NCBI GenBank assembly: GCA_025054955.1
Contig: JANWZE010000031.1
Location: 38,567 to 102,566 of the forward strand
Length of the DNA: 64,000 nt
Direction of reading: 5' to 3'
Origin: Blastocatellia bacterium
GTDB lineage: Bacteria > Acidobacteriota > Blastocatellia > HR10 > J050
The notes below the pieces were generated by a model, which saw only the letters and a list, made by a program, of their open reading frames with translations, made no database searches and was not told the DNA's origin. Shown here piece by piece: positions 7,058 to 44,867 of the stretch. How positions within the stretch are numbered: position 1 is the stretch's first letter; the number at the start of each line of letters is the position of its first letter. Made by a program: the position numbers and the translations under genes.

Positions 7058-7061
7058 TGTT

Positions 7062-12172: not shown

Positions 12173-12233
12173 ATGAAGGCCCGAGCCGTGGTTGTGTTTC
12201 AGCAGATGTCGCGCGGCATTCATCATTCGGGTT

Positions 12234-12698: not shown

Positions 12699-12701
12699 GT
12701 C

Positions 12702-14473: not shown

Positions 14474-15736
14474 ATGGAAAAAGTGCTCAGTGCCAGATTC
14501 GATATTCCCAATTCACACACGCTGGATGTCTACCTGCAGCACGGTGGATATAGGGCGCTCCAGAAAGCGCTCACCGAGATGACGCCGGAGCAAATCACCG
14601 AGGAGGTCAAGAAATCGGCATTGCGCGGGCGCGGCGGCGCTGGCTTTTCGACCGGCTTGAAGTGGAGCTTTGTGCCGAAGGATAGCCCGAAGCCAATCTA
14701 TCTGGTCGTCAACGCCGACGAAAGTGAACCGGGAACGTTCAAGGACCGGCCGATCATGGAGAAAGACCCACACGCGCTGCTGGAAGGCATGATGATTGCC
14801 GCCTATGCCATCAGCTCGCATCTGGCGTTCATCTACATTCGCGGGGAGTACTGGTATTTGAAGGAGCGGCTCGAGCAGGCCATCGAGGAGGCGCGCGCCC
14901 GTGGATACGTTGGCAAGAACATCCTGGGCACCGGCTTCGATTGCGACGTGATCGTTCATCCGGGCGCCGGCGCGTACATCTGTGGCGAAGAGACGGCGTT
15001 GCTGGAATCATTGGAAGGCAAGCGCGGTTATCCGCGCATCAAGCCGCCGTTTCCCGCGCTGGTCGGTTTATACGGCTGTCCGACAGTCGTCAACAATGTC
15101 GAGACGATTGCTTCGGTTCCGCCGATTATCGTCAACGGCGGCGATTGGTTCCGACGCTTAGGCACCGAGAAAAGCGGTGGCACACGCTTGTTCGCGGTCA
15201 GTGGACACGTCGAGCGACCCGGCGTCTATGAGCGCCCGCTTGGCTATCCGCTCAAGCAATTGATCGAAGATTGTGGCGGCGTGCGCGGCGGCAGAAAACT
15301 GAAAGCTGTTATTCCCGGCGGCACATCAGCGCCGATTCTCACAGCCGAGGAGGCCGAAACCATCACGCTGGACTTTGAGGCCCTGGCCGCGATCGGTTCC
15401 ATGCTCGGCAGCGGCGGCGTGATCGTCATGGATGAGACGACCGACATCGTGCAAGCCACCTATCGTTCCATCAAATTTTACGAACATGAATCCTGTGGCT
15501 GGTGTGTGCCCTGCCGCGAAGGCACGAATTGGTTGGTAAAAATTTTCCGACGCTTGCTGCGCGGCGGCGGCACCGAGCGGGACATTGACATGTTGATCGA
15601 GCTTTCCGACAACATGTTTGGTCGCACACATTGTCCGCTGGGCGATGCCGCTGCATGGGCGGTAGCGCCGGCGGTCAAGAAATTCCGCGCCGAGTTTGAG
15701 CGCTACGTTCAACGGCGAGTCAGCGTCGCCGTATGA
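14474..15736 (+). CDS. nuoF: NADH-quinone oxidoreductase subunit F (51-kDa, FMN/NADH-binding, 4Fe-4S)
   Basis: GRGGAGFSTG FMN motif and CGWCVPCREGT cluster motif. Confidence 0.95.
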   Translation: MEKVLSARFDIPNSHTLDVYLQHGGYRALQKALTEMTPEQITEEVKKSALRGRGGAGFSTGLKWSFVPKDSPKPIYLVVNADESEPGTFKDRPIMEKDPHALLEGMMIAAYAISSHLAFIYIRGEYWYLKERLEQAIEEARARGYVGKNILGTGFDCDVIVHPGAGAYICGEETALLESLEGKRGYPRIKPPFPALVGLYGCPTVVNNVETIASVPPIIVNGGDWFRRLGTEKSGGTRLFAVSGHVERPGVYERPLGYPLKQLIEDCGGVRGGRKLKAVIPGGTSAPILTAEEAETITLDFEALAAIGSMLGSGGVIVMDETTDIVQATYRSIKFYEHESCGWCVPCREGTNWLVKIFRRLLRGGGTERDIDMLIELSDNMFGRTHCPLGDAAAWAVAPAVKKFRAEFERYVQRRVSVAV

Positions 15737-15749
15737 GGAATCAGGGGTC

Positions 15750-17939
15750 ATGACAGAGTTGGTGAAAGTGACCATTGATGGTCGAGAGTTCACAGCGCCC
15801 AAGGGAGAGTACCTGTTAGAAGTTTGCGAAACGAACGGCATTTATGTGCCGAACTTCTGCTATTATCACAAACTGCAACCGCAGGCCGCTTGCCGCATGT
15901 GTTTGGTGCGGATTGAGCGCATGCCGAAACTGCAAACAGCCTGCACTGTGCGCGTGCAAGACGGCATGATCGTGACGACACAATCGGATGAAATCAAGCA
16001 AGCGCAGCAAGGCATGGTTGATTTCATCCTGTCAAATCACCCGCTGGATTGCCCCATGTGCGACAAGGGCGGCGAGTGCGAATTGCAGTACATGAGCTTC
16101 ACCTTCGGCAATCTGTTCGCTCGCATGATGGAGACAAAGAACCATCAGGACGAGCGAGCGCTCAGCCCGTTCATTTATCTGGACCCGCAGCGGTGCATTC
16201 TCTGTTATCGTTGCATTCGCACCTGCGATGAGTGGGTTGGCGACCATGCGCTCGGCGTGCTGGGACGCGGCGCGCGTTCGGTCATCATCGGCAATAAGCG
16301 AGATGGGACGCTCGAATGCGAGCAGTGCGGCAATTGCGTTGAGGTCTGTCCGGTCGGGGCATTGACCAGCGCCAATTTCCGCTTCAAAGCGCGTCCATGG
16401 GATATTGAGGACACGATCACGACCTGCACCTACTGCGCTGACGGCTGCCAGTTGAAATTGAGCGTGCGTGAAGGCAAAATCGTACGCGCTTGGGCCAAAG
16501 ACATGACCGGCATCAATCACGAATTCCTGTGTATCAAGGGACGCTACGGAAATGAATTTGCTAATAGCCCGGACCGTATTCGCACGCCGCTGATTCGTCG
16601 CAACGGCCAGTTGGAACCGGCCGGCTGGGACGAAGCTATCGCGCTCGTTGCTGCCCGATTGAAAGAAATCAAAACCAAGTACGGCGCGGATAGTATTGCC
16701 TGCATCGGCTCGCCACGATTGACTAATGAAGTGCTCTACGTGTTCAACAAGTTTGCGCGTGAGGTGATTGGCGCTTCCCGTGTCAGCTTGGTGGCCGACG
16801 ACTGGCGCCCGTTCTTCAAGCATCTGAGCTCACCATTGGCAACGCAGGAAGAGATTCGCACAGGGCGAAAAACCCTGCTGCTCATTGGCGGTAATCCACC
16901 CGAATACAACCCGCTGACTGCCTACAGCCTGCGGTTTGCCGTCAGAGAGAATGGGTCACGACTGATCTATGCCAACGCGCGACCGCTGCGGCGCATGCAA
17001 CACGCGGCAGAGTTCTTGCATATCCGGTCTGGCTCAGAACCGGCGCTCATCTTGGCGCTGCTTGATGAGACGCAGTTGGAAACGGCCGCAGCCTGCACCA
17101 ATCTCAGCATCGAGCAGCTACGCGGCCTGCGCCATACGCTCGAACAAAGCCAGGATGTCGTGTTCCTAATCGGACCGGAGGTTCGCGGCGCGGCGATGGA
17201 AGCAGCAGCGATGCTTGGCCAACGATGGTCAACGGATGGCCGTCAGGTACGTTTGCTGCCGCTCTTGCGATTTAACAATTCGCTCGGCGCACTCGATATG
17301 GGACTCACCGACGACTTGCCAGCGCCGGAAGATGTCGGGCCAAGCATCAAGGCGCTCTATCTGGTCGGCGCGGAGCTGATCCGCTATGGCGGCGCTCAGT
17401 GGTGCGATGCGTTGGAACGAGCCGAATTTGTCGTCATGCACCAGTTATTCATGACGCCATCATGCGAACGCGCCGATGTGGTGCTGCCGGCGATGAGCTT
17501 CGCCGAAATTGACGGCACGTTTACCAACGACGGCGGTCAGGTGCAACGCGTGCGTCGCGCGCTGGATGCGCCCGGCGAACGTCGGCCCGATTGGATGATT
17601 ATTCGTCTGGTCGCCAAATGCATGGGTCAGGATATGGATTTGAAGAGTTCGGCCCCAGCGCTGTTCAAAGACATGGCCGAACAGATTCCGGGCTATGAAG
17701 GCATCACCTACGCGTTGCTTGGTCAACAGGGAGCTGTGCAAACGCAACGACCAATGGCTCACGGCATCAATATTGAAAAGATTATGAGCCGACTCAAAGC
17801 GCAAGTCGAGGCAGTGGATCGGACCCGCGCAATGATCAACGAGCCGCCGCCGCTTGGCGAAGGATTATTCGAGCGCGGTTCGCTGGTGGAACACGTGCCG
17901 TTGCTGGCCAAGGTGTTTGGGTGGAATGGGCAGGAGTAG
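15750..17939 (+). CDS. nuoG: NADH-quinone oxidoreductase subunit G (75-kDa)
   Basis: N-terminal 2Fe-2S and 4Fe-4S Cys clusters (CYYH..C..C; HPLDCPMCDKGGECELQ) plus a molybdopterin-like domain. Start set at MTELVKV, which overlaps the nuoF end. Confidence 0.9.
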   Translation: MTELVKVTIDGREFTAPKGEYLLEVCETNGIYVPNFCYYHKLQPQAACRMCLVRIERMPKLQTACTVRVQDGMIVTTQSDEIKQAQQGMVDFILSNHPLDCPMCDKGGECELQYMSFTFGNLFARMMETKNHQDERALSPFIYLDPQRCILCYRCIRTCDEWVGDHALGVLGRGARSVIIGNKRDGTLECEQCGNCVEVCPVGALTSANFRFKARPWDIEDTITTCTYCADGCQLKLSVREGKIVRAWAKDMTGINHEFLCIKGRYGNEFANSPDRIRTPLIRRNGQLEPAGWDEAIALVAARLKEIKTKYGADSIACIGSPRLTNEVLYVFNKFAREVIGASRVSLVADDWRPFFKHLSSPLATQEEIRTGRKTLLLIGGNPPEYNPLTAYSLRFAVRENGSRLIYANARPLRRMQHAAEFLHIRSGSEPALILALLDETQLETAAACTNLSIEQLRGLRHTLEQSQDVVFLIGPEVRGAAMEAAAMLGQRWSTDGRQVRLLPLLRFNNSLGALDMGLTDDLPAPEDVGPSIKALYLVGAELIRYGGAQWCDALERAEFVVMHQLFMTPSCERADVVLPAMSFAEIDGTFTNDGGQVQRVRRALDAPGERRPDWMIIRLVAKCMGQDMDLKSSAPALFKDMAEQIPGYEGITYALLGQQGAVQTQRPMAHGINIEKIMSRLKAQVEAVDRTRAMINEPPPLGEGLFERGSLVEHVPLLAKVFGWNGQE

Positions 17940-32767: not shown

Positions 32768-32875
32768 ATGAATAAGATCAAACAGCAACTCGGACAGATT
32801 GACCCCATCACCCTATTGCTGGCTTTGTTGTTGGCGCTGGGCACAGGCGCTTGCCCTATTGCGCTGGGTCGCTAA
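32768..32875 (+). CDS. small peptide 4 (35 aa, MNKIKQQLGQIDPITLLLALLLALGTGACPIALGR)
   Basis: RBS AAAAGGAGA. Paralog. Confidence 0.6.
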   Translation: MNKIKQQLGQIDPITLLLALLLALGTGACPIALGR

Positions 32876-32911
32876 TCACGACGCATCAGCCTGCAAATCA
32901 GGAGACGAAAC

Positions 32912-33013
32912 ATGAAAGCGATTACGCGACAGCTCGGACAAATAGATCCCGTTACCATTTTGATAGCCCTGTTGCTTGCACTAAGCGCGGGAACTTGTTC
33001 AATCGTACCCTGA
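32912..33013 (+). CDS. small peptide 5 (33 aa, MKAITRQLGQIDPVTILIALLLALSAGTCSIVP), most divergent copy
   Basis: RBS CAGGAGA. Paralog. Confidence 0.55.
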   Translation: MKAITRQLGQIDPVTILIALLLALSAGTCSIVP

Positions 33014-33036
33014 CCAGCTTTCAGGTCAACATCGGG

Positions 33037-33077
33037 ACCAAGCTGAGCATTTACCAAACCATCACGCTCAGCTTGGT
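33037..33077 (+). terminator. perfect 12-bp-stem hairpin (accaagctgagc-N17-gctcagcttggt) between the peptide array and the ECF sigma gene
   Basis: Seen directly. Followed by a weak T-rich stretch 'tcctgttat', so it may be a terminator or attenuator that allows read-through. Confidence 0.5.
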
Positions 33078-33108
33078 TCCTGTTATGGAGAGTTATGGAG
33101 GATCAGCT

Positions 33109-33708
33109 ATGGCTGCACAAATGGTTGCAAGATTGACGGATTTTCAGTTAGCTCGAGCTTCAGCCGCTGGGGATCATCGGGCTTTTGAAATGCTTTACTG
33201 CCAGCATCACCGACGGGTTTACAGTCTGTGCTTGAGGATGCTGAGGAACCACGAAGAGGCGGAGGATGTGACCCAAGAGGTTTTTCTCCAGGTCTATCGT
33301 AAGATCAATAGTTTTCAGGGCAATTCGGCTTTCACCACCTGGCTTCACCGATTGACAGTTAACATGGTGCTCATGTATTTACGGCGCAAACAGAAGGGGC
33401 ATAGGCAGGAAGAGACGTTGGAAGCAAACCAAATGGCCGATCCACTGGAGAATCGCAAACAGGTTGGGCATCCTGATTTTCCCATTGAGGCAGTTGATTT
33501 GCAGAACGCGATCAATGATCTACCAAATGGCTACCGCCAGGTCTTTATCCTGCATGATATCGAAGGATATGAGCACAATGAGATTAGTCAATTACTGGGC
33601 ATTAGCGTCGGAACGGCGAAATCTCAACTGCACAAAGCTCGGTTGAAACTGCGACAAGCGCTGCGAGCTACCCACCCGCAACAACTCGTGACGGCGACCG
33701 TTCAATAA
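33109..33708 (+). CDS. ECF-type (sigma-70 family) RNA polymerase sigma factor
   Basis: Region 2 (...DVTQEVFLQVYRKINSFQGNSAFTTWLHRLTVNMVLMYLRRK) and region 4 HTH (...NEISQLLGISVGTAKSQLHKARLKLR). Start set at MAAQMVARL with RBS GGAGGA, with 33085 as an alternative. No anti-sigma gene follows. Confidence 0.8.
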   Translation: MAAQMVARLTDFQLARASAAGDHRAFEMLYCQHHRRVYSLCLRMLRNHEEAEDVTQEVFLQVYRKINSFQGNSAFTTWLHRLTVNMVLMYLRRKQKGHRQEETLEANQMADPLENRKQVGHPDFPIEAVDLQNAINDLPNGYRQVFILHDIEGYEHNEISQLLGISVGTAKSQLHKARLKLRQALRATHPQQLVTATVQ

Positions 33709-33710
33709 CT

Positions 33711-35066
33711 TTATTCAGTGTCAGTTTCAATCGGTTCTTTCTGAGGGCTACTGCGCAAGCCATATTTTTCCAACCGGTACTGTAGCGTGCGAAACGAAAT
33801 GCCCAGCAGTTTAGCGGCCTGCGTGATGTTTCCATCCGTGCGCTGCATAGCTTGGACGATCAGCGAGCGTTCGACTTCGTCCAGGACCACGCCGTCGGGC
33901 GGCAACTTAAAGATCGCGGCGCTTCGCTCTTGTTGATGTTGGCGTAATTCCGGGGGCAAATCGTCCTGACCGATCTGGTCGCTTTCACACAGTAAGATGG
34001 CGCGCTCAATCACTGATTCAAGTTGACGCACATTGCCCGGCCAACCATAGTTCATGAGCGCCTCCATCGCCGAGCGTGTCAGGCCGCTGATCCGTCGGTG
34101 AGCGGCTCGGGCATGCTTAGCCAGAAACAGATTGACCAACACCGGGATGTCCTCACGACGTTCCCGCAACGGCGGCACGTCAATCGAAAGCACATTGATG
34201 CGATAGAATAAGTCCTCGCGAAACCGACCATCTTGCACCATTGCGTCTAAATCCCGATTGGTGGCCGTCAGGACGCGAACGTCAACTTTGACCGGTCGCG
34301 TGCCGCCGACGCGCATGATTTCTTTCTCTTGCAGCGCTCGCAGTAGCTTGGCTTGCATGCTTGTGTTGAGCTCAGCAATTTCGTCTAAGAACAGTGTCCC
34401 TTGATCGGCGACCTCAAACAGGCCTTTTTTCTGCGCGTGGGCGCCGGTGAAGCTGCCTTTTTCGTGGCCGAACAATTCGGACTCCATCAGGTTCTCATTG
34501 ATAGCCGCGCAGTTGACTGCCTGAAAAATCTGGTTTGACCGTTGACTAGCTTTGTGGATCGCGCGTGCGATGCGCTCTTTACCGACGCCAGACTCGCCGC
34601 GAATGAGCACCGTTGAAGATGAATTGGCCACTTTTAAGATCATTTTTTTGACGCGCTCCATGGCTGCTGAGGCGCTGACGATCTCTTCGTCAATCGCGTC
34701 CAATTGCTTAAGCGCCTCTTGGATCGTTTTCAGCAGTGTGTCACGCTCCAGTGGTTTTTCCAGGTAGTCATAGGCGCCTAGCTTAATAGCTTCCTTAGCC
34801 GAATCAATCGAGCCATGGGCTGTCATCATGATGACGCAGGTGGATGAGTCCTGCGTCAGAAGCTCCTTCAGAAGCTGCAAGCCATCCATGCCTGGCATTT
34901 TCAGATCGGTGAGCACTAAATCGAAATGCTCATGTGCGACAAGCTGCATAGCCTGATGGCCGCTTGCGGCTGTGCTGACCTGATGTCCCTCTTCAGCGAG
35001 GATCAGTTGCAGAATATCGCGTTGAAGCTTTTCATCATCTACAACCAAAATCTTTCTGCTACGCAT
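33711..35066 (-). CDS. sigma-54-dependent response regulator (NtrC family: REC + AAA+ + Fis HTH)
   Basis: Receiver DLVLTDLKMPGMDG, Walker A GESGVGKE, GAFTGA motif (GSFTGA) and C-terminal HTH. Confidence 0.9.
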   Translation of the reverse strand: MRSRKILVVDDEKLQRDILQLILAEEGHQVSTAASGHQAMQLVAHEHFDLVLTDLKMPGMDGLQLLKELLTQDSSTCVIMMTAHGSIDSAKEAIKLGAYDYLEKPLERDTLLKTIQEALKQLDAIDEEIVSASAAMERVKKMILKVANSSSTVLIRGESGVGKERIARAIHKASQRSNQIFQAVNCAAINENLMESELFGHEKGSFTGAHAQKKGLFEVADQGTLFLDEIAELNTSMQAKLLRALQEKEIMRVGGTRPVKVDVRVLTATNRDLDAMVQDGRFREDLFYRINVLSIDVPPLRERREDIPVLVNLFLAKHARAAHRRISGLTRSAMEALMNYGWPGNVRQLESVIERAILLCESDQIGQDDLPPELRQHQQERSAAIFKLPPDGVVLDEVERSLIVQAMQRTDGNITQAAKLLGISFRTLQYRLEKYGLRSSPQKEPIETDTE

Positions 35067-35086
35067 GAGGCCGTCTCCTTAGTAGT

Positions 35087-36589
35087 TCATCCGTGCTGTT
35101 GGTTGGCATTTGTGTCAGAGGCCGGCGTTGGGGTATGCAAGCGTGGTAGCGTGATCGTAAACGACGAGCCTTGATCAAGCTGGCTGTGAACGCTAATAGT
35201 CCCGCCGTGGTCTTGCACCAATTTTTTAGTCACAGCCAGCCCCAGGCCAATGCCGGTCTCCTTCGTTGAGTAGTACGGCTCAAAGATTTTGTCCAGTTGC
35301 TCAGGGGCAATGCCAACGCCTGTATCGCTCACCGTGATTTGCACATCCTGATCAGAGGAAGCCAGGGTGATCCTCAATTGACCGCCTGTCGGCATAGCTT
35401 GAATGGCGTTCATCACCAAATTGGAGAGACAAATCTTCAGTAACTGCTCATCTGCCTGAATCTCTGGCACATCACCGTTGCATTCAACGAGCAAATGAAT
35501 TTTCTGTTCTTTTGCTTGCAGTTGCAATGGGGAAACGACATCGTTGAGCAATTGGGACAGGTTAACCGATTGAGGTGACAGTTTTGTTGGTTTGCCATAA
35601 TTGAGGAAGTCAGTCACAAGTTGGTTTAATCGCGCTATCTGGCTTTTAATTGAATCCAGTAAATTGTCGAACATGGATTGATCGGCCTCGGCGCTTGGGC
35701 GGAAACGGCTGCGTACATGGTCAATGCTGAGGTTGATGAAGTTCAGCGGATTGCGGATTTCGTGAGCGATGCCGGACGCCAAGCGTCCGATGGCGGCTGC
35801 TTGTTCAACCTCGCGCAGACGTTCTTCAAGCTGCCGATTGCGCTTTAAGCCATGAACCATTTCATTGAACGTGGCTGCCAGGCTACCGATCTCGTCGCGA
35901 TGTCTGACTTGGAGTTGCACATCAAGGTCGCCTTGGGCCACGCGGCGTTCAGCTTTGAGCAAATCGTCAATCGGACGAGTGAATCGCCTCACTAACCAGA
36001 TTAACAGGCAGGCGGTCACGCTCATCATGCCGATCATCGCCCACAGCCGGTTACGCGAGTTTTGTGTCAACACGTTGGAAATCCCTTCCCACGACAGCAG
36101 CACATGGATTCGCTCTTGTTGGGTAGCATTACCATTGCCTGTAGTGATGGGGAAATTGTAATAACGGACTTCGCCGGGCGCTGTCTGTTGGGCTTGCTGG
36201 AAGAGTTCGTTGTAGCTGATCTGGTGCTCTGGATCGGGTAACGGACCGGCGCTGACCAGCTCTTTGCCGAAGACGGCCGGGTTGGTACTGTCCTTGATCA
36301 CGCGACGATGGTCGGTGATGAAGATAAGCAAGACGATTGGCCGAAATCGCGGTTGCATGGGATGTTGCTCAATGTATTCGGAGAGCCACAGTGGTGTGGG
36401 AATGGAGGCTAATGAAACCTGCACAGCCTCAGCTAACGCGCCGACGTGCTCGTCCACTTTATCGTGAATTTCTGCCTCAGCTTTCACGTTGAGCTGATAC
36501 AGCAAAAAGGTTGTTAATCCGACCATCGTCACCAGCAACAGCGTGACTTGCAGCATGAAGCTCATGTAGCGACCATCTTTCCTTTGCAT
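35087..36589 (-). CDS. sensor histidine kinase (membrane anchor, periplasmic-like domain, HAMP, HisKA, HATPase)
   Basis: H-box AAIGRLASGIAHEIRNPL and G-boxes DTGVGI / GLGLAV. Cognate partner of the adjacent response regulator. Confidence 0.85.
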   Translation of the reverse strand: MQRKDGRYMSFMLQVTLLLVTMVGLTTFLLYQLNVKAEAEIHDKVDEHVGALAEAVQVSLASIPTPLWLSEYIEQHPMQPRFRPIVLLIFITDHRRVIKDSTNPAVFGKELVSAGPLPDPEHQISYNELFQQAQQTAPGEVRYYNFPITTGNGNATQQERIHVLLSWEGISNVLTQNSRNRLWAMIGMMSVTACLLIWLVRRFTRPIDDLLKAERRVAQGDLDVQLQVRHRDEIGSLAATFNEMVHGLKRNRQLEERLREVEQAAAIGRLASGIAHEIRNPLNFINLSIDHVRSRFRPSAEADQSMFDNLLDSIKSQIARLNQLVTDFLNYGKPTKLSPQSVNLSQLLNDVVSPLQLQAKEQKIHLLVECNGDVPEIQADEQLLKICLSNLVMNAIQAMPTGGQLRITLASSDQDVQITVSDTGVGIAPEQLDKIFEPYYSTKETGIGLGLAVTKKLVQDHGGTISVHSQLDQGSSFTITLPRLHTPTPASDTNANQQHG

Positions 36590-36790: not shown

Positions 36791-38032
36791 ATGATGAACA
36801 GAAAGATACGTGCGCTGACATTAGGTTTGACATTTCTTGTCACATCTTTGGGGTGGCCCTCCAGCGGGCTCAGTTACGCCAGCTCTGCGGCTGTCCTCGG
36901 CCAACGCAAAGCGTATCGGAGCGGCGTCAAGGCTCGCAAAGCCTCCTTGCAATCGAAACGTAAGACGTCGCAAGCAAGACAGCGATCAGCCGGCACGCGC
37001 TGGCGTCGGGCACGGCGCCGGCGTGGCCCGACGATGGCTGAGATACTGGCGGCCAGAGCCCGTGCTCTGCGACTGCAATCGCAAATGGCTATCGCTCAAG
37101 ATGACGTGCGCGGTGAAGACCCTGAGGTACGTCAAGCTGTCCTCAATGCCCTTGGCGATCAGGCGGGAACGGTGGTGGTGATGGATGCGCAAACAGGCCG
37201 AGTTTATAGCATCGTCAACCAGGAGTGGGCGATTCGCCAAGGGTTCACTCCCTGCTCGACGATCAAACCTTTTGTGGCTCTTGCTGCCTTGAAGGAGAAT
37301 CTGATTCGGCCCACATTCCCTGCTGGTCAAGCCTCGCTGTCGTTGAGCTTGCTTGATGCCCTCTCACGTTCGGACAACATCTACTTTCAGCGAATCGGCG
37401 CGAGCCTCGGCGCTGAGCGCCTGCGGCGCTACGCAACCGACTTTGGACTGGGACAACTGACAGGCATCAATTTGCCTGGTGAGATTGCTGGCCGTATCCC
37501 TGACGGCCCTGTTGTAGGGACAGCATCAAGTCATGGCACCGGCTTTGCCGTCACGGCGATTCAGTTGGCCGTCTTCACGGCAGCTATCGCCAATTATGGA
37601 GCGGTGTACAGGCCTCAAGTGGTGATTGATGATATGCAAGCGCAGCCTGCTGGTGATCAGCATGGCGAAAGCCACGGCGATTTGGCGTCCGGGGGCCCGA
37701 CGGTTGCTTTCAAGCCGATTTTGCATCGCCATCTGAATATCAGTGAGGTCGAGCGCTTGAACCTGCTGGCTGGGATGACCGGCGCCGTCGAATTTGGTAC
37801 AGCCCGCCGGTCATACGACCCGACAATTCAGGTAGCTGGCAAGACCGGCAGTTGTACTGGCGACGCCGGCGTTCGTCTCGGCCTGTTCGCTTCGTTTGCG
37901 ACCGTCGAGCGACCGAGGCTCGTGGTGGTGGTCATAACGCAGGGAATCAATGAACGGGGTTCTTCAGCAGCGCAGATTGCTGGTCATATCTACCAGCAAC
38001 TTGCCGACCGATTCCAATTACGACATCCGTAA
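36791..38032 (+). CDS. penicillin-binding / beta-lactamase-fold transpeptidase-domain protein with Arg/Lys-rich N-terminal region
   Basis: All three active-site motifs present: STIK (SxxK), SDN (SxN) and KTGS (KTG). Signal peptide plus a low-complexity basic segment. Confidence 0.65.
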   Translation: MMNRKIRALTLGLTFLVTSLGWPSSGLSYASSAAVLGQRKAYRSGVKARKASLQSKRKTSQARQRSAGTRWRRARRRRGPTMAEILAARARALRLQSQMAIAQDDVRGEDPEVRQAVLNALGDQAGTVVVMDAQTGRVYSIVNQEWAIRQGFTPCSTIKPFVALAALKENLIRPTFPAGQASLSLSLLDALSRSDNIYFQRIGASLGAERLRRYATDFGLGQLTGINLPGEIAGRIPDGPVVGTASSHGTGFAVTAIQLAVFTAAIANYGAVYRPQVVIDDMQAQPAGDQHGESHGDLASGGPTVAFKPILHRHLNISEVERLNLLAGMTGAVEFGTARRSYDPTIQVAGKTGSCTGDAGVRLGLFASFATVERPRLVVVVITQGINERGSSAAQIAGHIYQQLADRFQLRHP

Positions 38033-39136
38033 TCATAGGTTGTTGCTAGCGCTGGCGGGCAGCGCGGCATGTCCTTGATAACAGCACGGACCCGGAGGAA
38101 TCCGTTTGCCATGCGGACAGTGCGTCGGGTGACCAAGGAAGGCGCATATACTATTGGTCATTTCCGGGCTTAAAATGTGCTCGAACACACAGGCTTCAGC
38201 TTCAGCCTGTTGATCCGGCATGCTGAGCGTGTTTGAGAAAAGCGTCTCAGCGAGCCGATGTCGTCGAATCAAGCTCCGAGCGCGTGCCTCGCCTTCCGAG
38301 GTGAGAAAGATGTCGTTGCCGTTGAGCGTGAACAACCGATTCATCCGCTCCGCATTGATATAGGCCTCACCGAACCGTCCGAGTGTTTTGATCACTGCAT
38401 CGCGTGTCAACTGACCGTCTTCTCTGAGCACCCAGAGTTGCTCCATGATTTCGTCAATGTTCTCCTCGACTTTTTCCGGCGTCAGATCAAAACCGATGAC
38501 GCGGCCATGATCCAGTTGAATCTGCCGATCCGCTTTCTGACCGATGCGGACATCGTGTGTGACCAGCACAATGGTATGGCCTTCGTGATGCAGTTCGCTC
38601 AACAGGTCCATGACAAGGCGTTCGTTCTCTTCATCAAGATTGCCCGTTGGCTCATCGGCCAGCAGCAAAGGCGGCTCATTGATCAGCGCCCGAGCGATGC
38701 ATACGCGCTGTTGTTCACCTCCGGAGAGCTCGCAAGGCCGATGGGTCAAGCGGTGGCCTAGGCCAACTCGCGCGAGCGCTTCGGCAGCTTCTTTCTCATC
38801 AACCATACTGTGGTAGTACTGAGCCAGCATGACGTTTTCCAGGGCTGTCAGATAAGGGATCAAGTGGAATTGTTGAAAAATCAGGCCGACATGTTCACGA
38901 CGGAATTCAGTCAATTGCGCGCCGGACAATTGCGTCACATCGTGGCCGGCAATCACCAGTCGTCCTTCGTCTGGTGTATCCAGGCAACCGAGCAAATTCA
39001 ACAGTGTCGTTTTACCTGAACCCGATGGCCCCATCACGGATACCCACTCGCCTTGCTCGATACGCATATCCACGTGATCAAGCGCGCGAACCGGGCCGTA
39101 GTCTTTGGTTAATTTTTCCGCCGTGATGAATGACAT
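38033..39136 (-). CDS. ABC transporter ATP-binding protein (LolD/MacB-type) fused to a C-terminal DtxR-like metalloregulator domain
   Basis: Walker [10 protein letters not shown], signature LSGGEQQR, Walker B LLLADEP. Residues ~225-367 align to the DtxR HTH plus metal-binding/dimerisation region (…[13 protein letters not shown]…[25 protein letters not shown]…) and end in a Cys-rich tail [13 protein letters not shown]. Confidence 0.75.
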
Positions 39137-39140
39137 AATT

Positions 39141-40283
39141 TCACTCTCCTTTCAACGCCGAGGCCGGCTCGATCGTGAGCGCCCGCTTGAGCGGCGCGTA
39201 TGCTGCCAGCCAACACACAATCAGAGCAAGCGCCAGTGTCAATGGAATCGTCTCTGGCCGAGGTGAGACGCCGGTCTGGAATAGACGCAGGCCAATGAGC
39301 CGTGACCCGATCACGCCGATAGCAAAGCCCGCCAACCCGCCAACCAACGCCAACACCGACGCCTCACTCAACAACAGTCCCAAAATCTGACGCGGTTGCG
39401 CGCCCAACGCTTTCATCAAACCAATTTCACGATGACGTTCCATCACAAGCGCCATCATCGTCGTCATCACGCACAACGCTGAAGTGATCAGGATGATAGC
39501 CGTCAGCACGAACATCACCCATTTGACTTTGCTCAGCACCTGAGCTTCGGATTGCGCGACTTGTCTGAGCGGACGCGCTTCAACGCCTGTAATCCGTTGT
39601 TCAATTTCTCGCGCTGTGGCTTGAACCTGTTGAAGGCCACCCATGACACTCAATGCCAAGAGTGAAATCTGAGCCTTCAGGCCGGTTGCGTGTTGGAGCG
39701 TCGAGAGGCTCATGAATACTTGCTCATCTTCGGATTCACCGGTCGTAACAATGCCCGTGATTCGTAGCAGGCCTTTCCAGCTCCCATCGCCGATGGCCAA
39801 CTGAATGCGATCGCCGACTTGCAATCCCAATCGCTGGGCCAGTTGCGAGCCAATCATGCCTGCATCAGTATTGTCATCGCGAGCCCATTCTCCTTGAACG
39901 TGCCAATATGGGCTGACTTGGCGAACGCTGTTGAATCGGACCCCAGCAACGATGACTGCCTCGTTGCTGGGGTCGGCCTGAATTGTCCCCGTTGCGTAAA
40001 GATAGGGCGCTGAACCAATCACCTTATCAGTGCCGCTGAGGCGTTCCACTTCCACCCACGACTCGCTCAAATGGCTTTCAGGGAACCGGGGGATCACAAC
40101 CAGGTTCGCTCCGTAGGTTCTGAGCTCTCGGTTCATTTTGCGCTCCACATCGAACGTCAAATTGAGCAGCGTCGCTGCCGCCGCCGTTCCCACCATGACA
40201 GCCAGTAAAGCCAGCGCCACTTTGACGCCCCGTCGCACCAGCGATTGTTTGAGCATCTGCCAAAAAAGTTGCTGCTGATTCAT
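39141..40283 (-). CDS. FtsX/MacB-family ABC transporter permease
   Basis: N-terminal TM, large periplasmic domain, C-terminal 3-TM FtsX domain (...GLMKALGAQPRQILGLLLSEA...). Start set at MNQQQLFWQ, 16 nt after the upstream gene's stop. Confidence 0.75.
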   Translation of the reverse strand: MNQQQLFWQMLKQSLVRRGVKVALALLAVMVGTAAAATLLNLTFDVERKMNRELRTYGANLVVIPRFPESHLSESWVEVERLSGTDKVIGSAPYLYATGTIQADPSNEAVIVAGVRFNSVRQVSPYWHVQGEWARDDNTDAGMIGSQLAQRLGLQVGDRIQLAIGDGSWKGLLRITGIVTTGESEDEQVFMSLSTLQHATGLKAQISLLALSVMGGLQQVQATAREIEQRITGVEARPLRQVAQSEAQVLSKVKWVMFVLTAIILITSALCVMTTMMALVMERHREIGLMKALGAQPRQILGLLLSEASVLALVGGLAGFAIGVIGSRLIGLRLFQTGVSPRPETIPLTLALALIVCWLAAYAPLKRALTIEPASALKGE

Positions 40284-40299
40284 ACGCCTTCGTGTATCG

Positions 40300-41577
40300 T
40301 CATGTATTGCGCAAAATTTCAACCGGACGGAAACCAAGCAATTGTCTTGCCGGCACAGCGCACCCAATCAGCGCAATGGCTACTGCCACGCCCAATGCCA
40401 GTGGTAATATGATCGGCTTAAGAGCGACGCTTGAACCGAAAACCACGCTGCCAACCAGCTTGGCTAGTATGATCCCTAAGCCGCAGCCCATGAACCCGCC
40501 GATCAATCCCATCAACGACGCCTCTGTAAGAAACAGAACAACCACCTGTGCGTTGGTCGAGCCAATGGCTTTCATCAATCCAATCTCGGTTCGTCGCTCC
40601 AGCACCGTTGTCATCATAGTGCTCATCACAGCCAGCGCCGATGCCACCAATGCCAGTGCAGCAACCAGTATCATCATGAGTTTCATTTTCTGCAGAATTC
40701 GAGCTTCGGATTCAACAACCCGCTGAATCGGTTTGACGTCAGCCATCGGGAACACCTCACGCAGATTGTGGGCAATCGAACTGACGAATGGCGTACACAT
40801 CCACCGCTCGAATTCTTCTGGCGGCAACCGGTGCGGGTCAGTCCCGAGGCGTTCATAGACTTTGCTTTCCGGTGTCGTGAGCGCGCTGACCAATACGCGC
40901 TCGATTTGTCCTTCACGCCGGGTGAGCTTCTGTACAGCAGCAAGCGTGGTGAAAATTTGATCGTCTTCCGCTCCGCCGGTTGTCAGGACACCGGTGACAT
41001 AAAACGAATCCTGCTGGTTGCCAACTTTGATCTCAAGCGTCTGGCCAGGCTGAATCTGTAATGCCTTGGCTACCGCTTGGCCAACCAGGGCCTGTTGAGG
41101 CGCGTTGGTTTCATCAACCCACTGACCCTCCACATGCCAAAGCGGATTGAGCGTCTTCATGCCGGTTTCCATGGCCCCGCCCTCGAAGCGAACCGGCTGA
41201 TGAAACCAAGTTCCGACCAATTTGACCGCCCGACCACGCACCGAGGCCCACTCGTCCAATATCGGAGCGAATGCCAAAATGTTGTGTCGCCAGAAGACCT
41301 CTTTGATTCTCGGCAGATGGCTTTCAGGCAATGCGCCTTCGGGTTTAAGCCGGCTCAAATCCTCGCCACCAATCTCTAACGGCAGAGCCGTCCCTTTGGG
41401 CACAATCAGCAAGTTGGCTCCAAACGCTTTCAGCTCACGATTGACCTTATCCTCCACATCCAGTGTGATGTTGAGTAGAACGACGATCACACTTGTGCCC
41501 AGCATCAGCGCCAACGTCGCAATCAATTTGCTACGTCGCTGTCGGCGGAACGATTGTGCGACCACACGAAAAAACAT
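40300..41577 (-). CDS. FtsX/MacB-family ABC transporter permease
   Basis: Same architecture (...GLMKAIGSTNAQVVVLFLTEA...). Paralog of the downstream permease. Confidence 0.75.
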   Translation of the reverse strand: MFFRVVAQSFRRQRRSKLIATLALMLGTSVIVVLLNITLDVEDKVNRELKAFGANLLIVPKGTALPLEIGGEDLSRLKPEGALPESHLPRIKEVFWRHNILAFAPILDEWASVRGRAVKLVGTWFHQPVRFEGGAMETGMKTLNPLWHVEGQWVDETNAPQQALVGQAVAKALQIQPGQTLEIKVGNQQDSFYVTGVLTTGGAEDDQIFTTLAAVQKLTRREGQIERVLVSALTTPESKVYERLGTDPHRLPPEEFERWMCTPFVSSIAHNLREVFPMADVKPIQRVVESEARILQKMKLMMILVAALALVASALAVMSTMMTTVLERRTEIGLMKAIGSTNAQVVVLFLTEASLMGLIGGFMGCGLGIILAKLVGSVVFGSSVALKPIILPLALGVAVAIALIGCAVPARQLLGFRPVEILRNT

Positions 41578-41605
41578 CAGGCGTACTCCTGATTTTTACT
41601 TCTCG

Positions 41606-43027
41606 TTAACGAGCGTACATCTCTGGGTTCTTCTCGAATGCCTTAGCGCATTCCGGCATTTTGCAAAAATAGTAAGTCCGCCCATTGTGCTGAACCTGCT
41701 TGCCCACATCAGCCATGCGCAGCTTCATCTGGCAAACAGGATCAAGAAGTTCGACCGGCTCGCTGTTGCCGAATCGTCCAACTTCCTTCATCACATCGCT
41801 GGCAGCGACCACTAACCAATCTCCATTAACGTGAGACGCCAGTGGAATGGGATTGCAGCCGCCGGTTTCGCCGATCGTCGGCGCATGAATATCTGCCGCG
41901 CAGTTGAGGCAGACGATCGCCCGGTCCTCCTGAACATATCCGTAAGCGCCGCAAATTTCGCAGGCGTCAAATGCCGTGCGGATTTTACCCTCGTCTGTCT
42001 TGAGCGCCAAAAAGCGAACCGTCGTCCCATTGACCGGCAAGCCGAAGCGATGAAGCTGGCCGTCATTGACCTCAGCGATAGGAATTTTGATCAGACCATT
42101 GTCGGCTTGCACGAGCTTCGGTGGACTAATCGTTCTCGAGCGCGTCGAGTAAGCATAATTGACTGTCAACACGGTGACGATCAAAACGCCAACCGTCGCC
42201 GTGATCAGTCGCCACCGCTTTTCCCGATTGAGCTGGGCCAATTGTTTGCGTGCTTCGGCCCCGTGAAGTTCAGCCGCCATGCTCAGGCGTTGTCGCGCTT
42301 GTTGACTGGGAACGAGTGTCATGATCAGTGGCAGCGCAATGATCGTCAAGATGAACAGCACATCGTGCTTGACAAGTGGTCCAATCAGGCTCATTTGGCG
42401 CGGCCCCAGAGGAATGACGCCGGCTTCCGCCAACTCGTGCAGACCACCGATTACAAGCTGCACGGCAAAGACCAGCAGCACAATACCTGTTACCTTGAAG
42501 AACCGGCCTAGATCAATGCGTACCGCTCCTTTGAATATGGCAATGCCCAGCGTCACGGCCAAACCAAGACCTATTATTCCGCCAAGCCAGCTAAGCAGCG
42601 CGTCGGTTGTCAAATTGACTGCGCTCAGAAATAGGATCGTCTCGATGCCTTCGCGAAAGATCATGACAAAAGTGAATCCAACAAGTCCCCACGAGTAGCC
42701 GGCAGCAGCTCCCTCGACAATTGTGCCGACGCGCTGCTCAATCTCTCCTTTTAATCTATGAGCCGTGCGCCACATCCAAATGATCATACTGCTGACAAAC
42801 ACAGCAGCCACCAGCATGGCAACGCCTTCAAATAACTCAGCGTTGAACTGAATGCGACTGAGACTCCACGCCCCGATGAGGCTAGCCAGCACAGCCAAGC
42901 TTAACCCCAAATAGACCGAGCGCGTTAAATCACTTCGCTCAATTTTGCGCAGGTAGGCCAGAATGATCCCAATAATGAGGGCGGCTTCAACGCCTTCACG
43001 CAACATGATGACGAGTGCTTGAAACAT
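41606..43027 (-). CDS. FTR1-family high-affinity iron permease fused to a Cys-rich periplasmic domain and a C-terminal YHS domain
   Basis: Two REXXE motifs (MLREGVEAAL, IFREGIETILF) in a 7-TM core. Then DACEICGAYGY...CLNCAADIH...GGCNP. Then the YHS-like DPVCQMKL...GRTYYFCKMPECAKAFEKNPEMY. Start set at MFQALVIML. Confidence 0.75.
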   Translation of the reverse strand: MFQALVIMLREGVEAALIIGIILAYLRKIERSDLTRSVYLGLSLAVLASLIGAWSLSRIQFNAELFEGVAMLVAAVFVSSMIIWMWRTAHRLKGEIEQRVGTIVEGAAAGYSWGLVGFTFVMIFREGIETILFLSAVNLTTDALLSWLGGIIGLGLAVTLGIAIFKGAVRIDLGRFFKVTGIVLLVFAVQLVIGGLHELAEAGVIPLGPRQMSLIGPLVKHDVLFILTIIALPLIMTLVPSQQARQRLSMAAELHGAEARKQLAQLNREKRWRLITATVGVLIVTVLTVNYAYSTRSRTISPPKLVQADNGLIKIPIAEVNDGQLHRFGLPVNGTTVRFLALKTDEGKIRTAFDACEICGAYGYVQEDRAIVCLNCAADIHAPTIGETGGCNPIPLASHVNGDWLVVAASDVMKEVGRFGNSEPVELLDPVCQMKLRMADVGKQVQHNGRTYYFCKMPECAKAFEKNPEMYAR

Positions 43028-43102
43028 AGGAATGGATCCTAATTTGAAAATGGTTTTCAATTTCGAGCAGAAGAGATTAACGACAGAAGGGGAAAAAGTC
43101 AA

Positions 43103-43390
43103 CGAGCAAGGCCAGCGCGTTCAGCAACGTTTCATCCGCACGCATGTTTCGACGTGTATTAGTAGAGATGAGCAGGGCTAGATTGCGTTCAGTGACGTTT
43201 CATCCGCGCGCGTATCTGGACACGAGCTAGAGCGATTTGCGAATGAGTTTATCCTGGGGCGCGCACTTCCAGCATGCATGAGCCCGCAAGATGCGGGCGC
43301 TCCCCGGGTAAAGGCAAATGAAAATCGCTTTAGTGAGAAGGATGAGCGCGGCACAGGGTCGCGTTCAGTGACGTTTCATCCGCGCGCGTA
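43103..43390. repeat. repeat cluster: three copies of a ~35-bp unit derived from the GT2 gene 3' end (gcgttcag(t/c)(g/a)acgtttcatccgc(g/a)cgc(g/a)t(a/g)t) flanking a ~100-bp family-A structured element (43231-43333)
   Basis: Unit copies at about 43126, 43185 and 43357. The 43357 copy contains the gene's stop and last codons. Confidence 0.8.
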
Positions 43391-44867
43391 TCTCGACTGT
43401 CCGCAGCCAATCCTTATAGGCGTCATATTGATTCATCGTGGTTAAAGGCAAGGCTCGGTCTGTATTCTCTTCCCAGCGCCGGACCAAATAAAGCGATTCA
43501 TAGATGCGTCCGATTTCATACTCTCGACTGATGCGCAGCCCGACGGCATAATCTTCGCCATAGCTCGTATTGGGAAACTTGATCTGTCGTAGCACAGGCA
43601 CATAAAACGCGCGAGGCGCGCCCAGACCAAGAACCCGTAACGCATTATTGCGACCGTTCTCCTGCGTCCATTCCCGATGATCAATCAACCCGGGGGGGGT
43701 CTCTTCGAGGTTGAAGTTGACGGTCGTGTACGAGCCAATGACCATCGCATATCGAGGCGCGGCCGTTGGCGATTCCCAGAATTTGTCAACCATCGTTTGT
43801 AGGGTATGTGTGTCACGATACAAATCATCCGAATCAAGCTGGACAGCAATTAACCCGCACTCCGGTGAATCAATCGCTTCATTCCAGCAACCACCAATAC
43901 CGAGATCGGTTCGTTGAGGAATCTTGTGAATCAAATTCTTATGCTGTCGAGCCGAGTTTTTGACGATGTCTGTTGTGCCGTCAGTCGAGTGGTTATCCAC
44001 CACGATGACGTTATAAGCGAACGAGGTTTCCTGGCTCAGGGCGCTATTGATAGCATCGGCAATCGTTTTCTCTCGATTACGCACTGGAATGACGATGCTT
44101 GCCATCACGGGAAAAGCGGTTTCGGTCGCCGGCGGTGATTGAAAGACCGGCTCCAAAAACGCGCCGATACGACGTAGATGGGCAGTAGCAATTCGCTCCA
44201 TCTCCAGTTGGTAATCGCGGTTATTGGGGTCAACATAACGATGGACAGGCTCCAGATCGGCTTGCTCGTCAATGGCCACCGGGCAGCGCGTGTAGAGCGG
44301 TTCCGGAACGCGGACAATGGCTGAATCAATTGAGATTTTCAGCCGAAGATCGTACACGCCGCCCCAGCGGATCGTTGCTTCAATGCGCCCGTGCTGCCGT
44401 CGCGCCCGGTCTGCTGCTTGTTTTGAGATCAGCAACAGCGAACCAAAATCAAAGGTGTCGCGGATGCTGCCCAGTTGATAATCAATGGTCGGGTGTTCGG
44501 TCACCTGACCGTGATTCCGCTCTCTAAAATCGGCATATATGATTCCGGCCTGTGTATCATCCATCACGGCGAGCAACCGTTCGATGGCTTGCTGACTGAT
44601 GTCCACCTCGTGACCGGGTAAAAGAAGCAACAGATGCTCAGTCGTGACAGCATCGAGGGCGCGCTCGATGCAATCACCGGAGAACCAGGAATCGGCCTGA
44701 AGGAATTGCACGCCGTCAGGCGGCGCTTGTAGCGGTGGGGTTTCCCGATGTAACACCACGGTGCGCTCGATCAGCGGATTCTGCGTGAACAGTTCGAGCT
44801 GGCGAGCAAACCCAGAAGCGCCAGCGTGATCAGAGAAATCAGGTATGATAGCTGTCAACGGTTTCAT
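43365..44867 (-). CDS. glycosyltransferase family 2 protein (two-domain; GT2 catalytic domain in the C-terminal half)
   Basis: ...MASIVIPVRNREKTIADAINSALSQETSFAYNVIVVDNHSTDGT... with a DxD-like QLDSDD. Confidence 0.7.
   Translation of the reverse strand: MKPLTAIIPDFSDHAGASGFARQLELFTQNPLIERTVVLHRETPPLQAPPDGVQFLQADSWFSGDCIERALDAVTTEHLLLLLPGHEVDISQQAIERLLAVMDDTQAGIIYADFRERNHGQVTEHPTIDYQLGSIRDTFDFGSLLLISKQAADRARRQHGRIEATIRWGGVYDLRLKISIDSAIVRVPEPLYTRCPVAIDEQADLEPVHRYVDPNNRDYQLEMERIATAHLRRIGAFLEPVFQSPPATETAFPVMASIVIPVRNREKTIADAINSALSQETSFAYNVIVVDNHSTDGTTDIVKNSARQHKNLIHKIPQRTDLGIGGCWNEAIDSPECGLIAVQLDSDDLYRDTHTLQTMVDKFWESPTAAPRYAMVIGSYTTVNFNLEETPPGLIDHREWTQENGRNNALRVLGLGAPRAFYVPVLRQIKFPNTSYGEDYAVGLRISREYEIGRIYESLYLVRRWEENTDRALPLTTMNQYDAYKDWLRTVEIRARMKRH

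Follow-up and report, generated by a model that had tools for sequence, protein, structure and literature searches.

A putative four-gene iron uptake cassette of the Fet/Sif lineage from a Blastocatellia bacterium, with an FTR1 permease joined to a FetA-type module and a DtxR-like extension on its ATPase

Positions 38033-43027 of a 64-kb stretch of the Blastocatellia contig JANWZE010000031.1 (the whole of which we call the window) contain four minus-strand open reading frames (ORFs) that run in one direction and are named here g1, g2, g3 and g4 in transcription order. Taken together, these genes probably form a self-contained iron uptake cassette of the Fet/Sif lineage that has been cut to four genes, is repressed by iron and carries a metal-gated ATPase, a reading in which we place moderate confidence. 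The permease g1 unites an FTR1 domain with the periplasmic module of FetA, and the ATP-binding cassette (ABC) ATPase g4 carries a DtxR-like C-terminus. The genes are laid out as follows:

41606-43027, minus strand: g1, 473 amino acids from ATG; FTR1 permease fused to a FetA-type periplasmic module
40300-41577, minus strand: g2, 425 amino acids; FetB orthologue, FtsX/MacB-type permease
39141-40283, minus strand: g3, 380 amino acids from ATG; FetC orthologue, second FtsX/MacB-type permease
38033-39136, minus strand: g4, 367 amino acids; FetD-type ABC ATPase with DtxR-like C-terminus

With ATG starts, the spacers between the genes measure 28 nt (g1-g2), 16 nt (g2-g3) and 4 nt (g3-g4). An earlier reading of the bare letters of this locus (the original prediction) had described four collinear minus-strand genes with overlaps or very short spacers, of which the collinearity and the short spacers (4-28 nt) stand and the overlaps do not, as none of the genes overlap. 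The ORF of g1 can be extended to a TTG at 43102; its start was placed at the ATG because all homologues begin MF(E/Q)..LREG, matching that start.

The system against which the cassette is best read is the Campylobacter jejuni cj1658-1663 cluster, now designated fetMP-fetABCDEF (cj1658-1665), in which FetM is the FTR1 permease, FetP is P19, FetA (Cj1660) is a protein with eight transmembrane (TM) helices and periplasmic DUF2318 and YHS domains that is the canonical neighbour of P19, FetB and FetC are FtsX permeases, FetD is the ATPase, and FetE and FetF are thioredoxins (Richardson-Sanchez et al., PMC10783030). Each of the C. jejuni fetA, fetB, fetC and fetD mutants is iron-limited in growth, and FetB and FetC, which are 28% identical to each other, are both required (PMC10783030). 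As the canonical reference for our comparisons, we used the complete Fet cluster from an E. coli plasmid (L006), to which all Fet queries below refer.

Composition and conservation of the cassette

Pfam divides g1 into FTR1 (PF03239, residues 1-202, 142.3 bits against a cutoff of 25.3), FtrD-like/DUF2318 (PF10080, residues 320-419, 98 bits) and YHS (PF04945, residues 429-472, 34.5 bits), and together with the reading of the motifs this bears out the earlier description of an FTR1 permease with two REXXE motifs, a Cys-rich domain and a YHS domain. Its parts are distributed as follows:

42305-43027, minus strand: FTR1 membrane domain, g1 residues 1-241, 7 TM helices (Pfam, hydropathy, helices of the model)
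42986-43000, minus strand: REXXE-1, REGVE, g1 residues 10-14
42641-42655, minus strand: REXXE-2, REGIE, g1 residues 125-129
42152-42304, minus strand: K/R-rich cytoplasmic linker (residues 242-273, 8 K+R) and TM8 (residues 274-292), from hydropathy and charge count
41771-42070, minus strand: DUF2318/FtrD-like domain with five cysteines (Cys5), g1 residues 320-419; predicted to be periplasmic and to adopt a Rieske-ferredoxin-like fold
41612-41743, minus strand: YHS/TRASH-type domain, g1 residues 429-472, Cys triad C432/C455/C460

Related loci were taken from a scan of GTDB species representatives, as the best-scoring 80 of at least that many, all of them on contigs of metagenome-assembled genomes (MAGs) or single cells; these loci are mostly from Terriglobia, and counts among them are not phylogenetically independent. 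Complete cassettes were counted in the 70 loci with at least 3.6 kb of downstream sequence, where 8 kb on either side of the cassette was examined. Both REXXE motifs (R, E, G and E), H197/E198/E201 and the five DUF2318 cysteines, arranged as CxxC-x13-CxxC-x14-C (C356/359/373/376/391), are invariant in 85/85 g1 orthologues. The protein is 38% identical to Paracoccus EfeU over 209 amino acids (E value 1e-37) and reaches 172.8 bits with the EfeU equivalog model NCBIfam NF041756, below its cutoff of 255; by these scores, g1 is a member of the FTR1 family but not an EfeU equivalog. The pair of REXXE motifs that marks this family, in TM1 and TM4, is complete in g1.

Canonical FetM matches the N-terminal part of g1 (30% identity, E 1e-13), and canonical FetA matches its C-terminal part (27% identity, E 1e-32). 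In profile comparisons with hhalign, g1 residues 197-472 proved homologous to FetA residues 172-453 (E 4e-40), and no similarity was detectable between g1 residues 1-200 and FetA residues 1-175 (E 0.3); the N-terminal 175 residues of FetA carry no REXXE motif at all. Because of the homology between g1 197-472 and FetA 172-453, we read g1 as a bona fide FTR1 permease to which the C-terminal part of FetA, about half of that protein, has been joined. The possibility that the N-terminal membrane part of FetA is itself a degenerate FTR1 domain, in which case the fused form would be ancestral, was also tried: the AlphaFold models share an eight-helix layout, and a Foldseek search of the PDB with the TM domain returned generic helical bundles only, with no match annotated as an FTR1-family protein.

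The AlphaFold model of g1 (predicted local distance difference test, 79.6; predicted template modelling score, 0.67) has a long helix at residues 257-294 and, read together with hydropathy, gives seven TM helices, a K/R-rich loop, TM8 and then a soluble part of 181 residues, and the same linker-then-TM8 layout is found by hydropathy and in the model of canonical FetA. The accepted topology of Ftr1p is N-out/C-in, and since g1 has eight TM helices, its DUF2318 and YHS domains are predicted to lie in the periplasm, as has been predicted for those of FetA. For the soluble part of the model, the top Foldseek matches were all Rieske domains, with weak E values of 0.03-0.7 and identities of 9-14%. 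On this model, DUF2318 would have a Rieske-like fold and yet be no Rieske protein, because its ligand motif is all-Cys.

The YHS domain is the variable part of g1. It is found in 11/70 complete cassettes and 12/85 orthologues and is missing from about 73/85, and its Cys triad is kept in all 12 of the orthologues that possess it. YHS/TRASH domains with a Cys triad are typical of copper-handling proteins, and the original prediction had raised a variant Fe(II) or Cu-dependent uptake system as a possibility; because so few cassettes and orthologues carry it, a copper dependence that is central to the system and based on YHS is unlikely.

Both g2 and g3 contain MacB_PCD and FtsX domains in Pfam, in agreement with the two FtsX/MacB-type permeases that the original prediction had called; its ABC ATPase-DtxR fusion is likewise borne out, in g4. 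Hydropathy gives each of them four TM helices, with a periplasmic loop of 262 amino acids in g2 and of 211 amino acids in g3. The identity of g2 with FetB is 41% over the full length (E 1e-97), above the score of FetC, and that of g3 with FetC is 36% (E 3e-68), FetC scoring higher on g3 than on g2; g2 and g3 are 29% identical to each other, on a par with the 28% between FetB and FetC of C. jejuni (PMC10783030). Residues 1-222 of g4 are 61% identical to FetD (E 4e-87). The suggested likeness to Campylobacter cj1658-1663 is thus substantiated by FetB, FetC and FetD orthology at 41%, 36% and 61%.

Downstream of g1, orthologues of FetB, FetC and FetD follow in this order in 70/70 loci, and because the identical four-gene order recurs in every one of them, it is more than chance. 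The loci come from Acidobacteriota (the majority), Nitrospirota, Planctomycetota, Desulfobacterota/Myxococcota, Omnitrophota, Chlamydiota and TA06, and a Verrucomicrobiae locus with the cassette was found separately from the GTDB scan. On four phylogenetically distant contigs with Pfam-annotated contexts, the cassette is intact and the flanks are unrelated. The best 120 database matches to g1 all carry FTR1 and DUF2318, with YHS variable, and its homologues are annotated only as 'Fe-S-containing protein', 'DUF2318 domain-containing protein' or 'FTR1 family protein'. A protein identical to g1 has been deposited from a Blastocatellia (Acidobacteriota) MAG. The cassette is widespread and conserved, and is no one-off.

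The partners that accompany such permeases elsewhere were searched for around these loci. The window contains neither a match to P19, for which a single E. coli query scored E 1.4 at best, nor another FTR1, and neither of these lies within 8 kb on either side of the cassette in any of the 70 related loci. EfeO, EfeB and FMN_bind gave no matches in the 85 related loci or in the window; a TlpA-like thioredoxin and a flavin mononucleotide (FMN)-binding protein, queried with the E. coli plasmid proteins, had no match in the window (E > 0.5), and a TlpA-like match was obtained in 1/85 related loci. No Fur-family gene was found in the window. The earlier statement that P19/FtrA is absent nearby therefore holds, as no P19/FtrA/EfeO-like gene is adjacent or elsewhere in the window, but the accompanying idea that the Cys-rich and YHS modules replace P19 does not: both are FetA modules that coexist with P19 in the known system. 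Because FetA/Cj1660 carries DUF2318 and YHS alongside a separate P19, these modules did not originate as a P19 substitute.

Two of the related loci show additional features. In a Deferrimicrobium MAG (L011), about 2 kb downstream of the main cassette, a second, smaller set at 14823-17255 encodes a 169-amino-acid DUF2318-only protein (PF10080, 98 bits), one FtsX permease and an ABC ATPase, so that the association of DUF2318, FtsX and ATPase also exists without FTR1. A Nitrospirota MAG (L008) has an iron island at 3722-12744, comprising fur, feoB, a DtxR-like/FeoA gene and an outer-membrane channel of the Phenol_MetA_deg family, followed by the cassette; here the ATPase is unfused, and a free-standing regulator of the fused-domain subfamily stands alongside.

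Operator, ATPase extension and surroundings

Upstream of g1 lie a Fur-box-like palindrome and a putative promoter:

43045-43064, minus strand: Fur-box-like palindrome GAAATTGAAAACCATTTTC, located between the putative -10 and the g1 ATG, 18 nt before the latter
43045-43059, minus strand: 15-mer core TGAAAACCATTTTCA of the palindrome, the sole match to TGAAAATNATTTTCA in the window
43074-43102, minus strand: putative sigma-70-type promoter, TTGACT (43102-43097), 17-nt spacer, TAATCT (43079-43074), read by eye

With up to two mismatches allowed, TGAAAATNATTTTCA has one match in the window where 0.24 are expected, and 20% of shuffled sequences also contain a match; by itself, this single match is not significant. 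The 15-mer recurs upstream of the g1 orthologue, mostly at a distance of 24-180 nt, in 51/84 related loci, and there are only 67 matches in the 1.24 Mb of sequence scanned. The palindrome agrees at 14/19 positions with the classical E. coli Fur box, GATAATGATAATCATTATC. In the Nitrospirota iron island, Fur-box-like 15-mers precede fur, at 25 nt, and also lie in the interval that separates g1 from the regulator gene, and in 7 loci a Fur-family gene lies directly upstream of the cassette and is co-oriented with it. The conserved operator supports an iron-responsive repression, in silico and short of proof. As to the promoter, TTGACT-17-TAGTCT is likewise present upstream of two orthologues (L001 and L007); a sigma-70 consensus scan did not call a promoter here, and TAATCT fits TATAAT at 3/6 positions. 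We therefore treat TTGACT-17-TAATCT as a putative promoter.

The product of g4 consists of two parts:

38495-39136, minus strand: N-terminal ABC ATPase, g4 residues 1-214, FetD-type
38033-38494, minus strand: C-terminal DtxR/IdeR-like metal-binding and dimerisation module, g4 residues 215-367, with no SH3/FeoA domain

In Pfam, these correspond to ABC_tran at residues 19-164 and Fe_dep_repr_C (PF02742) at residues 279-347, the latter with 91.1 bits (cutoff 27). The nearest solved structures to the ATPase are the nucleotide-binding domains (NBDs) of MJ0796, MacB and LolD (E 1e-54 to 1e-50). Residues 215-367 align to IdeR/DtxR residues 15-136 (E 2e-13), and 5/6 of the IdeR domain-2 ligands are kept in the Fe_dep_repr_C domain, the equivalent positions being H293, E297, E312, C316, E319 and H320. 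Among 66 fused homologues, H293 (IdeR H79) is conserved in 64, E297 (E83) in all 66, C316 (C102) in 57, and E319 (E105) and H320 (H106) in 63 each; the position of IdeR H98 is mostly Glu in the fused family (45/66), as it is in g4 (E312). Its closest relatives stand alone, as proteins of about 215-240 amino acids (about 215-250 among representative sequences) with Fe_dep_repr_C and FeoA/SH3, which are collinear with the fused segment and share with it a divergent helical N-domain, 'DExLExLWxLRExG', whereas g4 has no FeoA.

The ATPase-DtxR fusion is present in 62/70 cassettes. In a Terriglobia MAG (L053), the DtxR-like part is a separate ORF that begins with NBD C-terminal sequence (IELHHGKI…), probably because a frameshift or a mistake of assembly has split a gene that is otherwise fused; were the split an artefact, the fusion count would be 63/70. 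After the canonical DtxR ligands, at g4 residues ~331-352 (window ~38081-38146), there is a Cys/His motif, CAFLGHPxxCPHGxPIPPGxCC, that both the fused domain and its free-standing PF02742+FeoA relatives keep invariant and that IdeR does not have; it may form an extra metal or Fe-S site.

A role for this extension other than the gating of the ATPase has to be considered, namely that it is a membrane-tethered DNA-binding repressor that autoregulates the operon through the palindrome upstream of g1, with no allosteric gating. In its favor, the fused segment is collinear with whole free-standing regulators, N-terminal domain included, and aligns to IdeR from residue 15; a free-standing subfamily member stands beside the cassette with unfused ATPase in L008; and, among the loci examined, the AT-rich palindrome is found mostly in fusion-bearing lineages, although lineage and fusion status are confounded in the sample. 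However, g4 has no Pfam match to the helix-turn-helix (HTH) domain Fe_dep_repress (PF01325), and at the IdeR DNA-contact positions S37, P39, T40 and Q43 the fused family (66 homologues) has either other residues or gaps. The palindrome, moreover, resembles a Fur box and not a DtxR/IdeR box and precedes fur in L008, and a domain tethered beneath a membrane ABC complex by some 10 residues of linker is in an unfavourable position to contact an operator. We regard such a repressor as unlikely and favor a metal-dependent control of the ATPase.

The neighbors of the cassette in the window are unrelated to iron and comprise genes for a GT2 glycosyltransferase, a lipid A acyltransferase, a DUF2914 protein, an adenosine deaminase, a penicillin-binding protein (PBP) transpeptidase, a histidine kinase with a sigma-54 response regulator, and an extracytoplasmic function (ECF) sigma factor. 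The nearest of them downstream is:

36791-38032, plus strand: PBP-transpeptidase gene, convergent with g4

The stop codons of the PBP-transpeptidase gene and g4 abut (TAA|TCA, 38030-38035), with no spacer between the two convergent transcription units and hence no room for terminators between them. Beyond the PBP gene, positions 32851-36589 hold the ECF sigma factor (plus strand), the sigma-54-dependent response regulator (minus strand) and the HAMP histidine kinase (minus strand); a link between the cassette and this two-component system or the ECF sigma factor was considered and dropped, as these genes lie beyond the convergent PBP gene and the flanks vary among relatives. On the other side of the cassette, a 37-nt unit, GCGTTCAGTGACGTTTCATCCGCGCGCGTATCTSGAC (plus strand), occurs in three direct copies at 43117-43153 (81%), 43185-43221 and 43361-43397 (97%). 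The copy at 43361-43397 overlaps the last codons and the stop of the GT2 glycosyltransferase gene (43365-44867, minus strand), so that the spacer before g1 holds two extra copies of the 3' end of that gene. A terminator-like hairpin, ATCAGGAGTACGCCTGAT with a T-run, at 41576-41593 in the g1-g2 junction, a segment that includes the ribosome-binding site and start codon of g2, was also dropped, because it is not conserved in L001 and L007 and the scan matches are at chance level.

Proposed mechanism and alternatives

In the mechanism that we propose, iron would cross the inner membrane via the REXXE pathway of g1, and the tethered periplasmic DUF2318 domain would be the metal or electron hand-off partner, a role otherwise filled by Fet3p, EfeO/EfeB, P19 or FtrB; the domain could house a redox centre through which transport is coupled to Fe(II)/Fe(III) conversion, or it could hand over the iron itself. 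The FetB-FetC heterodimer, formed by g2 and g3, together with two FetD subunits would constitute a type VII machine in which ATP hydrolysis in the cytoplasm drives movements of the periplasmic domains, and these movements would act on the DUF2318/FTR1 module without carrying substrate across the membrane. When metal is replete, the pair of DtxR-like domains beneath the ATPase dimer would take up Fe2+ (or Mn2+) from the cytosol and stop the ATPase, a shut-down analogous to the trans-inhibition exerted by the C-terminal domains of MetN and ModC, and transcription would additionally be repressed by Fur via the Fur-box-like operator. Trans-inhibition in MetNI and ModBC is the subject of a review (PMC4245157).

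Ftr1p and FtrC have an oxidase-permease requirement (PMC11966278). A bolder version of the mechanism would make the cassette a copper- and P19-independent oxidase-permease, in which a tethered all-Cys Rieske-fold Fe-S or Fe(Cys)4 centre performs the Fe(II)/Fe(III) step, the MacB-type engine powers or gates it, and the DtxR-like domain represents a new, Fe2+-reading class of trans-inhibition; we put this forward tentatively, as a possible but rather doubtful extension.

Several points weigh against the uptake cassette as we describe it: (i) its metal specificity, the DUF2318 cofactor, the contact between g1 and g2/g3 and the effect of metal on the ATPase are all things that we infer; (ii) the Rieske similarity rests on a predicted model, with weak Foldseek E values; (iii) a mononuclear Fe/Zn site or redox-active disulfides, the latter having been proposed for FetA (PMC10783030), are equally possible for DUF2318; (iv) the protein that binds the operator could be some regulator other than Fur; (v) relatives of the sensor domain are labelled 'DtxR family Mn-dependent transcriptional regulator', so that the sensed metal could be Mn; (vi) 8/70 cassettes are without the DtxR fusion, which is hence not essential to the core mechanism; and (vii) the absence of P19 covers 8 kb on either side of each cassette and the 64-kb window with one query, and a distant partner is possible. 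The reading is least certain as to which cofactor DUF2318 carries, what the ABC engine does and whether trans-inhibition takes place.

Instead of taking up iron, the cassette might handle Mn2+, Cu+, Zn2+ or Pb2+, or serve metal detoxification or efflux; the Mn-dependent names of the sensor-domain relatives, the YHS/TRASH Cys triad and the membership of PbrT in the FTR1 family can be cited in this sense, as can the fact that MacB-type ABC systems are usually exporters or extractors, MacB and LolD being among the nearest NBD structures. Against this stand the invariant REXXE motifs and the identity of g1 with EfeU, the linkage of fur and feoB to the cassette, the Fur-box-like operator, the iron-limitation phenotypes of the orthologous FetA-D and Sif genes, and the absence of YHS from most orthologues. 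A metal other than iron, or an efflux function, thus appears improbable.

The MacB family exports diverse substrates, and g2-g4 could be an independent MacB-like exporter of a chelator, peptide or reductant that is co-transcribed with g1 and has no mechanical coupling to it. Along similar lines, Richardson-Sanchez et al. have proposed that FetBCD supplies reducing power via FetA and does not transport iron (PMC10783030). However, the g1-g2-g3-g4 order is strictly conserved with spacers of 4-28 nt, neither a membrane-fusion nor an outer-membrane partner is linked to the cassette, Fet-type clusters are where DUF2318 proteins are almost always found (Liu et al., PMC6083913), and the second set of L011 pairs a DUF2318-only protein with FtsX and ATPase, all of which makes an uncoupled exporter very unlikely. 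It is just as hard to credit that the cassette is an incomplete, FetABCD-like accessory part needing P19/FetM, EfeO or a cupredoxin encoded elsewhere: each of the 33 canonical clusters in the survey of Liu et al. (PMC6083913) does have FetM and P19 together with FetABCD, and our partner search spanned 8 kb on either side of each cassette and one 64-kb window, but g1 has its own intact FTR1 domain under strong constraint, none of the 70 loci, which come from several phyla, has a linked P19, EfeO, EfeB or second FTR1, and the four genes stay together as the flanks vary by lineage.

If the bolder version of the mechanism is true, Rosetta-stone logic would assign roles to FetA and FetBCD in Campylobacter, Yersinia and E. 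coli, with FetA acting directly on the FTR1 permease; each of these genes is required under iron limitation. Because the variant fuses the FetA module to FTR1 and does so without P19, a separate FetM or thioredoxins, it argues that the minimal unit is FTR1, DUF2318 and FetBCD, with DUF2318 acting directly on the permease. The predicted Rieske-like fold provides a concrete structural hypothesis for DUF2318, and the ATPase-DtxR fusion suggests a post-translational, metal-sensing brake on the ABC engine. In Acidobacteriota, as in other abundant phyla of soil and sediment, the cassette seems to provide a major route of iron acquisition that is so far uncharacterised.

Comparison with known systems

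The closest known system is FetMP-FetABCDEF, homologues of which also occur on enterobacterial plasmids and in Yersinia. With FetB, FetC and FetD of that system, g2, g3 and g4 are orthologous one to one and in unchanged order, its FetA has the eight-TM layout and the identical Cys5 motif in a periplasmic DUF2318 (spacing CxxC-x13-CxxC-x14/15-C), followed by YHS, as in g1, and the system is Fur-regulated and needed under iron limitation; for the cassette, the Fur-box-like operator conserved in position and the fur gene adjacent in 7 loci suggest that expression may respond to iron. On the other hand, FetMP-FetABCDEF possesses a separate FetM (a 628-amino-acid FTR1 protein), P19/FetP and the FetE/F thioredoxins, to which the cassette has no linked counterparts; the N-terminus of FetA is without REXXE motifs and without similarity to FTR1, whereas the membrane domain of g1 is a true FTR1; canonical FetD, with 231 amino acids, has no DtxR-like domain; and the YHS domain of E. 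coli FetA lacks the Cys triad that is present in g1. Because the separate FetM, P19 and thioredoxin/FMN partner are missing and FetD gains a domain, the cassette should be filed as a variant of the FetMP-FetABCDEF system rather than as a member.

In Bifidobacterium breve, BfeUO-SifABCDE comprises, by its published description, an FTR1 permease together with the eight-TM protein SifA, the FtsX permeases SifB and SifC and the ATPase SifD; it is iron-induced and required under ferrous-iron chelation, to which sif mutants are sensitive (PMC5449479). It differs from the cassette in having two operons, a separate permease, the BfeO lipoprotein and the FMN-binding SifE, with no fusions reported.

With EfeUOB, FtrABCD and the yeast Fet3p-Ftr1p pair, the cassette has in common an EfeU/Ftr1-type permease. 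Those systems couple permeation to a redox or metal-binding partner in the periplasm (PMC11966278). Their partners are separate (the soluble cupredoxin/M75 protein EfeO, the peroxidase EfeB, P19, FtrB or a multicopper oxidase) and there is no ABC ATPase, whereas here the partner would be a tethered Cys5 domain of predicted Rieske-like fold combined with a type VII ABC machine. The original prediction had also credited Bordetella ftrABCD with an FtsX-like ABC component, which we could not confirm, as none of the four components of the Bordetella/Brucella FtrABCD system is described as an FtsX or ABC part (PMC11966278).

The type VII ABC systems (MacB, LolCDE, FtsEX and BceAB) share with g2 and g3 the FtsX fold with four TM helices and a large periplasmic domain between TM1 and TM2, and LolC/LolE can be likened to the g2-g3 pair as a heterodimeric permease; the cassette differs in having no linked adaptor or outer-membrane partner, in its linkage to an uptake permease and in the metal-sensor domain on its ATPase. 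Rieske [2Fe-2S] ferredoxins resemble DUF2318 in predicted fold but show no sequence similarity to it and bind their cluster through CxH...CxxH, whereas DUF2318 has CxxC...CxxC and a fifth Cys.

As for fused arrangements of this kind, the literature that we searched, from which most subscription journals were excluded, so that this is weak evidence, describes neither a fused cassette without P19 nor an ABC ATPase that bears a DtxR-type domain, and contains nothing that combines DtxR with trans-inhibition. The DtxR/IdeR/MntR regulators share with the extension of g4 the Fe_dep_repr_C domain with most of the IdeR ligands; in g4, this domain is fused to an ABC ATPase instead of forming a free DNA-binding protein, has neither a Pfam HTH match nor an SH3/FeoA domain, and carries the additional CAFLGHP motif. 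The C-terminal domains of MetN and ModC, which mediate trans-inhibition, are sited at the C-terminus of the ATPase, and the extension of g4 sits at the place that matches the regulatory C-domains of MetN, ModC and MalK.

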